This document shows, piece after piece, positions 31,713 through 32,484 of a stretch of 64,000 bases of DNA. The notes beneath the pieces are model-generated. The model was not told where the DNA came from. It saw only the letters and a list, made by a program, of their open reading frames with translations, and made no database searches. Source of the DNA: Octopus vulgaris (taxonomy: Eukaryota). The stretch's first letter is position 1; each line of letters begins with the position of its first letter. The stretch is from assembly GCA_951406725.2 (NCBI GenBank), contig OX597818.1:52452001-52516000 (forward strand), written 5' to 3'. A program made the translations under genes and the position numbers.

Positions 31713-32187
31713 CACCTCTAGATATCCTGTTGCTTATTTTGATTATGTTATGTATGTGTATGTATGTTATGTGTATATATGTATATATATATATATATAT
31801 ATATATATATATATATATATATATATATATTATATATATATATATGTGCCTGTATGTATATACATTATTATATGTATGTATGGATATTCGCATGTGTATG
31901 TATGTGGGTTTGTATGTATATTTATTTTATATGTTCTTTTATGTATACTTATCTACTTCTTCCCTCCACTAATAACAACAACAACAAACTGGCTAAAAGC
32001 GATAGTCTTCTAATTTACCTAAAACTCTATTCAATTATTCTATTTATTCATTTATTTACTTTATCACTGATTCTTTTGACCACTCCCCAAGAAAGACAGT
32101 TTGTGCTCTGCTTACCCCAAAATTCCCCCACCATCACCCCATTAAATCTGCCTAAATGTATAAATGCTAGAACTTATTTTGACAGCA

Positions 32188-32238
32188 AGCTTCCTGATGA
32201 TTTCATTTGAATGAAACAGTTCTAGTCCTGTAGAAGCT
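32188..32238 (+). ncRNA. Type I hammerhead ribozyme
   Basis: AGCTTC-CTGATGA-TTTCATTTGAAT-GAA-ACAG-ttctagtc-CTGT-A-GAAGCT; perfect 6-bp stem I, 4-bp stem III, GUA cleavage triplet. Confidence 0.85.
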
Positions 32239-32484
32239 CCTTCTATAAAATAAATTAATTTACTCTGCTATGTATTGAGTACCTTGTTTACTGTGGTTAA
32301 CCCCGACTCAACCCGGGACCTACATATATATATATATATATATATATATATATATATATATATATATATATTATATTATATATATATATATATATATATA
32401 TATATATATATATATATATATATATATATATATATATATATATATATATATATATATATATATATATATATATATATATATATA

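Follow-up and report, generated by a model that had tools for sequence, protein, structure and literature searches.

A hammerhead-bearing terminal repeat of a Hydra-clade Penelope-like element in Octopus vulgaris and the likely start of its capped RNA

A TATA-like word, a hammerhead ribozyme motif and an AATAAA hexamer stand in close succession within a 64,000-nucleotide stretch of Octopus vulgaris DNA (assembly GCA_951406725.2, contig OX597818.1, positions 52,452,001 to 52,516,000 of the forward strand; the whole stretch is called the window, and its own numbering is used below). What kind of element carries this arrangement, and where would its RNA begin and its copying start? The transcription start, the reason for head-to-head inverted pairs and the role of the hammerhead are open questions in the available text of papers on Penelope-like elements, or PLEs (PMC4209133, PMC3846280, PMC11167929). 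A preliminary description of this DNA had read positions 31960..32322 as a solo PLE terminal repeat that combines a promoter, a self-cleavage site and a poly(A) signal. The features that we now distinguish are the following.

31749..32327, + strand: the entire 5'-truncated copy, from a Hydra-clade Penelope-like element, which comprises a remnant of the 3' UTR and the pseudo-LTR with its long 'B' end; 20 other genomic copies align at 81-94% over 340-630 bp
31749..32151, + strand: distal part of the 3' UTR, a degenerate GT/AT microsatellite and then unique sequence, by comparison with relatives
32152..32165, + strand: invariant 14-nt block with the TATA box (TATAAAT from 32159, 29 nt before the putative start); 0 of 14 positions polymorphic
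32166..32187, + strand: 22-nt spacer, variable in sequence and fixed in length; 14 of 22 positions variable among 80 termini
32188, + strand: putative capped transcription start, which is the first base of hammerhead stem I and the stop of the mini-insertions, as read from DNA fossils
32188..32238, + strand: type I hammerhead motif with a predicted cut after A32232 (6-bp stem I, 3-bp stem II closed by U.U, 4-bp stem III, 8-nt near-palindromic loop)
32229..32247, + strand: 8-bp hairpin, conserved and nearly invariant in sequence, in which the cut site and the 3' strand of stem I are predicted to be masked
32249..32255, + strand: AATAAA(T), at the family's short end ('A'), where 1,835 exact copies give way to (AT)n; family 2 has the same end position
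32256..32327, + strand: tail of 72 nt that separates end A from end B and into which 3,636 exact copies read
32302..32317, + strand: 4-bp hairpin immediately upstream of end B, with an AC-rich loop that holds its sole common variant; its stability is unremarkable (z -1.25)
32328..32485, no strand: (AT)n target microsatellite, from the sequence

The individual motifs are present as the preliminary description gave them. Direct reading and a script both recover the TATA-like word TGTATAAAT at 32157-32165 and the perfect stem I formed by AGCTTC (32188-32193) and GAAGCT (32233-32238). Stem III has four pairs when A15.1-U16.1 is counted and carries a loop of 8 nt, AATAAA occupies 32249-32254, and the end hairpin CCCGACTCAACCCGGG at 32302-32317 adjoins (AT)n that continues to 32485. 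The proposed island does contain these motifs, but the element actually runs from about 31749, some 200 bp further 5', to 32327. The other hammerheads alluded to in that description were not recovered, as two scans of the window found no other credible one. Of 6,034 non-microsatellite positions sampled across the window, 0.5% have both a TATA-like word upstream and AATAAA downstream (4.4% and 4.9% when each word is counted by itself), and the case that the motifs are real rests on conservation in a family, not on chance odds in the window alone. Other genomic copies do keep the arrangement of TATA box and hammerhead, of which there are 2,636 exact copies and 0 hits for the reversed control.

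The locus is a dispersed repeat of the 2.8-Gb genome (1,052 candidates, 43 of which were scored, with identities of 90-97%). Its relatives have a common sharp 3' end, and their 5' extensions differ in length through a degenerate microsatellite. The 5' limit near 31749 is only approximate because the element merges with simple repeats there. By following relatives upstream, an ORF encoding a reverse transcriptase (RT) and a GIY-YIG endonuclease (EN) was reached, whose intact parent copy is L071. This copy consists of a repeat (1468-1824), an ORF of 713 amino acids (1872-4013), a 2.3-kb 3' UTR and a second repeat (6252-6606), and thus provides the copies flanking a PLE ORF for which the preliminary description had advised a search. 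In full copies the 3' UTR measures 2.3-3 kb, and in the upstream pseudo-LTR (pLTR) the tail continues into the 5' UTR, with the ATG about 43 nt after end B. The ORF has been lost from the window copy.

Several traits place this element among EN-containing PLEs, which have a single ORF with RT and C-terminal GIY-YIG domains. The ORF of L071 carries YRDD and VY..YIG motifs, and the family has pseudo-LTRs that arise from partial tandems, inverted 5'-truncated partners and a tail. Homologues include some rows with PF01541 and PF00078. A direct Pfam scan of the ORF gave no RT or EN hit, and Pfam and PDB sequence searches with it gave no meaningful match. Hydra-clade motifs are present in P0001, namely RWR, DKT, CNCPDKTTC (CxCx5C), CDLC..E and N..CMH (CxxC..E..N..CxH), while CCHH is absent; there is one C between the GIY and YIG positions, and family 2 (below) has RWK instead of RWR. 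Insertion is into (TA)n, as in that clade. A length below 3 kb, which is a described tendency of the clade and not a defining trait, is exceeded here, with a period of 4,784 bp in L071 and about 5.2 kb in L077 and L078. The long period (4.8-5.2 kb) is due to the microsatellite 3' UTR of 2.3-3 kb. By its protein motifs, the window element is assigned to the Hydra clade of PLEs.

The window stretch can accordingly be classified, from sequence comparison, as the 3' terminal repeat of a 5'-truncated Hydra-clade insertion. This retains the Penelope-like terminal repeat of the preliminary description and drops the word solo, the repeat being the 3' end of a truncated insertion. A solo LTR left by recombination was considered and rejected, since this copy extends 5' beyond the repeat, into 3' UTR sequence, and relatives break off at many points. 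A target duplication cannot be read inside (TA)n. Without its ORF the window copy is probably a dead end, though its promoter (the TATA box) is intact. It is itself an ordinary truncated fragment, and the evidence that carries interest is found at the level of the family.

There are several other repeats and genes near this copy or its relatives. Directly after the (AT)n, window positions 32490-33155 hold the 3' end of a LINE-like element with a frame of about 190 codons that ends near 33062 and a short 3' UTR with ATCTAAGT repeats. Positions 33215-33430 form a short, MITE-like inverted-repeat element with arms of about 90 bp. A U6 snRNA gene or pseudogene lies at 62832-62935 on the minus strand (Rfam, 101 bits), and an abundant SINE-like repeat with tandem units of 163-190 bp is found at 967-1383, 16629-16993, 17787-18151, 23161-23665, 24152-24522, 45658-46008 and 48198-48572. 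Elsewhere in the genome, other Penelope-like families, some with hammerhead-like words of their own, lie in or beside copies of this family (L040, L041, L102 and L044 at 7400-8850). There are also three retrozyme-like arrays, L200 (C8:91.47 Mb), L201 (C5:37.48 Mb) and L202 (C2:64.63 Mb), with units of 271, 333 and 277 bp, respectively. Their units comprise TATA box, hammerhead, tail and the first 45-63 nt of the ORF, in two divergent arms of which one ends at A and one at B.

A second family offers a useful comparison. Family 2 has 43% protein identity with the first and the same plan, with AAAATAAA at end A, a 72-nt tail, and the tail words TTACTCT and GTATT(T)GAGTAC in common with family 1. 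Its copies (L091-L102) are young and of Hydra type, with open frames of 725-727 amino acids and a minimal hammerhead in which A.A closes stem II.

Family 1 has a sharp stop at position 32188. There are at least 1,450 head-to-head pairs genome-wide whose centre is no longer than 12 nt, and these form mini-insertions of about 200 bp. A further 404 pairs have a centre of 13-42 nt (some places fall in both counts). We examined 93 junctions, which were the first 50 among those listed with a centre of up to 12 nt plus 43 with a centre of 13-42 nt. Among their 186 arms, 105 stop at +1 (position 32188), 30 stop at +2, 45 are shorter and only 6 pass 32188. Likewise, in 20 tiny pairs that were retrieved, no arm reaches 5' of 32187/8. 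ORF-linked copies L153, L156, L157 and L196 also begin at +1, and most ORF-linked single copies retain the TATA box. Run X16 has loose ends at the stop and at both ends.

The 93 junctions contain 55 different centre sequences, which indicates that such pairs formed repeatedly and independently. In view of the same diversity, seen across subfamilies, a self-amplifying MITE master was rejected as the source of the palindromes. Snap-back of stem I was also considered as the source of the mini-copies and was set aside, as there are only 29 such cases.

There is often an extra G immediately before the stop. In 76 distinct places where a copy is joined to (TA)n, the base before +1 is G in 44, T in 13, C in 12 and A in 7 (hand count), whereas the templated base at that position is G in 0 of 106 motif matches. 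One ORF-linked copy (L196) reads simply as (TA)n, G, the start and then the ORF. At non-perfect head-to-head junctions, G precedes +1 in 61 of 75 arms, although 40 of the 61 could derive from neighbouring element sequence; the (TA)n-joined copies are the cleaner test. An extra G is reported to mark capped full-length L1 insertions (PMC11702581, in its available text). The extra G at 32188 is likely the signature of a copied mRNA cap, to judge from these genomic copies. Together, the cap-like G and the stop suggest that transcription likely starts at 32188, which is 29 nt after the T of the TATA box.

There are two side observations on the ends of the copies. Half of the arms that retain only GCTTC (15 of 30) have T in place of the first base, A, often behind a G; possibly, and speculatively, this reflects misreading of a modified cap-adjacent nucleotide. 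In addition, short tandem units in L184, L180, L195 and L110 suggest that the RT jumped between RNAs, leaving one at its 5' end (+1 or the cut site) and landing 15-40 nt beyond end B of another.

The stop might have a cause other than an RNA end. A structural block, or fold-back and self-priming at the AGCT palindrome, could halt synthesis at 32188, and end A could be an endonuclease cut in newly made DNA. Perfect AGCT overlaps account for 15 of the 93 junctions, family 2 also joins at a palindrome (CTAG), and self-priming on an antisense template and EN-mediated resolution have been proposed for rotifer Penelopes (PMC3846280) and in PMC8557442, respectively, in the portions of these papers available. 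Moreover, fold-back of one cDNA and annealing of two look alike in these data, and the two arms would match in subfamily whether or not they derive from two RNA molecules. However, copies joined directly to (TA)n stop at the same base, with a non-templated G in 44 of 76, and the stop is seen in template jumps too (L184). It is also common to subfamilies with different upstream spacers, and the products of intramolecular stem-I snap-back number just 29. We consider such a non-RNA origin of the stop improbable, and a capped RNA end at 32188 is the reading that we carry forward.

What would place the start at this base? An alignment of 80 termini (from 97, of which 17 were excluded for insufficient length or lack of an anchor; a few rows may duplicate one place) supplies the contrast between the invariant TATA block and the variable spacer given above, where the spacer changes may trace to few events. 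When spacers of 18-28 nt were allowed, the length was exactly 22 nt in 100 of 100 among the matches listed. The spacer haplotype of the window copy is private (1 of 80 termini) and extends a misfolding helix with loop III. A TATA box is expected to have a capped start 25-31 nt downstream, and in these DNA copies the stop lies at +29 with its extra G in 44 of 76 places. The promoter reading of the preliminary description thus gains support from the fixed spacing and from the cap-like G 29 nt after the TATA T. As far as genomic copies can tell, a capped RNA likely begins at the hammerhead's first base under the direction of the TATA box.

Family 2 is relevant to this assignment. There are 605 head-to-head pairs in that family, which stop 14-17 nt before the hammerhead core in an initiator-like CCATTCT, at the first paired base of an extended stem I. 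Among 55 (TA)n-joined places listed, 26 start at -17 and 22 at -13, in a view that extends to -19, and G is found in one only. There is no conserved TATA at the matching distance in family 2.

These data bear on the possibility that the TATA word is an incidental AT-rich sequence, and that an initiator or an internal promoter sets the start at 32188, as in the Penelope of Drosophila virilis. Family 2 stops without a conserved TATA, and the tail words that both families have in common (TTACTCT and GTATT(T)GAGTAC) could be internal promoter elements. Yet an AT-rich word of no consequence would hardly be expected to remain an invariant 14-nt block beside a spacer of fixed length with 14 of 22 sites variable, nor to be retained in the units of all three independent tandem arrays. 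We regard an incidental TATA as unlikely, and the TATA box remains our preferred determinant of the start.

There are two fixed 3' ends in this family. Among 97 termini, 47 end at B (32327), 35 end at A (32255), 11 read through into the ORF and 4 are unclassified. The two kinds of end are regularly paired with one another. On C1 0-59 Mb, a divergent B end lies within 12 kb of 33 of the 45 A ends, and A-A and B-B pairs number 0 each; 21 of these 33 A+B pairs are tiny, and 11 of the tiny ones are 105-108 apart. Similarly, 55 of 58 fully typed head-to-head junctions are A+B. In long A-B pairs (at least 403 bp), the TATA box is present on both arms in 10 of 10 by a comparison of lists by hand, in which the pairs at 170 and 277 are absent from the TATA list. 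The presence of TATA on both arms argues against independent, retrovirus-like jumps and indicates templates that read past AATAAA.

The reading of AATAAA as a poly(A) signal finds little or no support here. No poly(A) was seen at the classified genomic ends of the 97 termini, which are joined to (AT)n, and long copies run 72 nt past AATAAA. Among contigs, run X12 has a single loose end of A's at 32254 with an agreement of 0.65, which provides no evidence of poly(A). An intron between the tail and a YAG ahead of the ATG was also considered; the joints listed include none of this kind, and three contigs read unspliced across end B into the ORF, which is uninformative as contigs cannot show an intron. 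Because AATAAA coincides with a fixed end of the element, it is more likely an RT start than a poly(A) site. By this analysis, AATAAA likely marks one of two reverse-transcription start sites.

Perhaps the repeat is instead a true LTR, with a TATA promoter, an R region that begins at 32188 and closes at a poly(A) site behind AATAAA, the tail as U5, and strong-stop cDNAs that jump to the 3' repeat. The sequence does show an order like U3-R-U5, two distant families conserve AATAAA, U/GU-rich sequence follows it, and short stopped cDNAs are abundant. A true LTR would allow the two arms of a pair to jump independently, whereas the arms here pass or stop together, as the TATA box on both arms of all 10 long pairs indicates. 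The cap G is carried into long copies in 0 of 106 cases, the classified ends are joined to (AT)n and not to poly(A), and AATAAA lies exactly at end A. A true LTR is therefore a poor candidate in our judgement, and we retain AATAAA as a likely RT start.

The hammerhead itself has the type I features, with CUGANGA, GAAA, a UH cut site and stems I-III (core CTGATGA at 32194-32200 and GAAA at 32213-32216). The usual G10.1-C11.1 pair is replaced by U.U in stem II, and by A.A in family 2. We considered the U.U at 10.1/11.1 as a novelty and rejected this, since it is common among Hydra-clade hammerheads (PMC8557442 File S2, as available). Rfam gave no hammerhead hit at the gathering score or at E<=10, and the isolated motif is not unusually stable (z -0.40). 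There is nevertheless evidence for constraint, as 4 of 14 free hammerhead positions vary among the 80 termini versus 0 of 37 constrained ones (Fisher p=0.004).

It is doubtful, by these folding models, that the ribozyme acts as a monomer. The preliminary description had expected it to fold as one, which is plausible for the bare 51-mer (P about 0.36) and is predicted not to occur in the context of this copy (P<0.01), where the private spacer adds a further misfold; the loop III favours a dimer. The hairpin at 32229-32247 has a predicted pairing probability of 0.87-0.90 in three subfamilies, versus 0.00-0.07 for stem I. For loop III, a dimer is predicted at -12.8 kcal/mol versus -2.8 for two hairpins, and the sole common loop variant lengthens the palindrome (-15.2). 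These models predict that the ribozyme is held off by the hairpin and needs a protein or a second RNA as partner. Reports on metazoan PLE hammerheads describe weak cleavage by dimers (PMC4209133 and PMC6765202, in the text available). In family 2, the fold from +1 is predicted to retain the extended stem I, so the cut-site hairpin may not be general. A pairing between GCTAGAAC and GTTCTAGT was rejected as a conserved pseudoknot, as it needs the haplotype of 1 of 80 termini.

One alternative is that the hammerhead works efficiently as a monomer and removes the first 45 nt together with the cap, the cut RNA being the normal template. Its stem III loop of 8 nt is larger than the 1-3 nt of the Hydra-clade hammerheads in the available part of PMC8557442 File S2, the isolated 51-mer does fold as a hammerhead monomer (predicted P(I and III) 0.24-0.52), and a few copies or tandem units begin at the cut site (L103, L104, L110 and L195). 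Stem I is nonetheless predicted to be nearly unpaired in context, and loop III to prefer the dimer, by the values above. Starts at the cut site number 25 and 28 mixed matches versus more than 1,450 at +1, and among the first 100 matches listed no enrichment was seen, with about 5 starts both there and at a different TA within the motif. Efficient monomeric cleavage seems to us a distinctly weak prospect, and we favour a ribozyme held off by the hairpin.

As a separate observation, three probable RNA runs, X4, X9 and X12, have clustered A>G and T>C changes within the hammerhead (window positions 32207-32235). At A32232 the changes number 131 of 316 in X4, 415 of 1089 in X9 and 186 of 909 in X12 (summed depth), versus 0 of 90225 in X17. 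The clusters look like A-to-I editing of palindromic mini-copies, which is a hint only, as the runs are unmatched and come from other organisms. If real, editing at A32232 would block cleavage.

A sequence of events that would produce these structures can be proposed. RNA polymerase II would start at 32188 of the upstream repeat. By analogy with a different clade, the RT-endonuclease would nick both (TA)n strands and prime one cDNA at A and one at B. When acting on the 5' repeat of the RNA, both cDNAs would run off the cap after about 68 and about 140 nt, and would then be joined head-to-head, often via AGCT or short re-copied patches, to give palindromes of about 200 bp. Where the enzyme instead worked on the downstream repeat, in a transcript that had read through, the cDNAs would pass the TATA box into the 3' UTR, which would yield long or truncated copies like that of the window. 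The ribozyme would be held off by its hairpin until a partner RNA or protein is present, and most insertions would for that reason come from uncut RNA.

We consider it probable that the stretch is a Hydra-clade 3' terminal repeat whose TATA box directs a capped RNA from 32188, with AATAAA as one of two RT starts. There are points against this model, such as the 32 of 76 (TA)n-joined starts without an extra G, the lack of a conserved TATA at the same distance in family 2, and the G in only 1 of 26 listed starts at the limit of that family. In addition, the D. virilis Penelope promoter is internal and was aligned by its authors with TATA-less LINE promoters (PMC2377424, in the text available). 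We lean slightly towards a broader proposal for the Hydra clade. The capped RNA would begin at the first paired base of the hammerhead, and the RT would use the 5' and the 3' repeat with similar frequency from its two internal start sites, so that thousands of strong-stop palindromes record the cap. The ribozyme, held by a hairpin, may then be a switch for cap removal or a signal for dimerisation, and not a monomer cutter.

Parts of this picture are already in print, including the clade, the tail, head-to-head pairs, pLTR hammerheads and a predicted TATA. A start at stem I, the cap G and abundant stopped mini-palindromes were not found in the openly available text that was searched. The family yields predictions from the genome at the level of single bases, namely a start site, two RT starts, a G copied from the cap and an inhibitory hairpin. 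Counts of stopped inverted pairs and of extra G's could map start sites in any genome that holds such elements. Placed at the extreme 5' end, the ribozyme would remove the cap if it cut, which would tie it to translation or to the choice of template. If true, the model gives a picture of how this poorly understood class copies itself.

The closest known systems are the C-terminal-EN PLEs of the Hydra clade, which includes Hydra-1_Obim (Craig et al. 2021, PMC8557442, in its available parts). Like these, the octopus family has a single RT-GIY-YIG ORF with RWK-type, DKT, CxCx5C, CxxC and CxH motifs and no CCHH, inserts into (TA)n, has a type I hammerhead of the kind in which U..U often closes stem II, and occurs in tandem and inverted layouts with a tail at one end. 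It differs in its period of 4.8-5.2 kb (published families are mostly below 3 kb), its tail of 72 nt rather than 30-40, and its loop III of 8 nt rather than 1-3. The hammerhead also differs from the one listed for Hydra-1_oBim, which indicates another family. No promoter or start site for the clade was found in the available text of that paper.

PAc, a Poseidon PLE of Anolis, uses two internal RT start sites in vitro that are the ends of its tail, and its hammerhead, which required protein, could be dispensed with for insertion (Frangieh et al. 2024, PMC11167929, in the text available). The octopus family similarly has two fixed ends around a tail, AT-rich targets, a stem-loop rich in AC close to one end, and a hammerhead that insertion apparently does not require. 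In PAc, the start of the ORF is overlapped by both hammerhead and tail, whereas both precede the ATG here. Neither mapping of RNA 5' ends nor stopped head-to-head mini-copies was found in the available text of that study.

Transcription of the D. virilis Penelope likewise starts inside the pseudo-LTR, but from an internal promoter and with an intron that ends at the hammerhead (Schostak et al. 2008, PMC2377424, as available). In A. vaga, a TATA and an initiator have been predicted in the pLTRs of Penelopes, whose head-to-head junctions are palindromic (Arkhipova et al. 2013, PMC3846280, as available). There, the TATA is only predicted and the junctions are read as antisense self-priming, whereas here the position of the junctions and the extra G point to the end of a capped sense RNA. 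Animal non-LTR retrozymes (bioRxiv 10.64898/2026.07.22.740005 and PMC6765202, in the portions available) are a final parallel, and the available text of the preprint makes no mention of a promoter, TATA or transcription start. The three genomic arrays with 271-, 277- and 333-bp units of the window repeat resemble these retrozymes, whereas the window copy is a single terminus without an array, and the mini-palindromes of the family are inverted rather than tandem.
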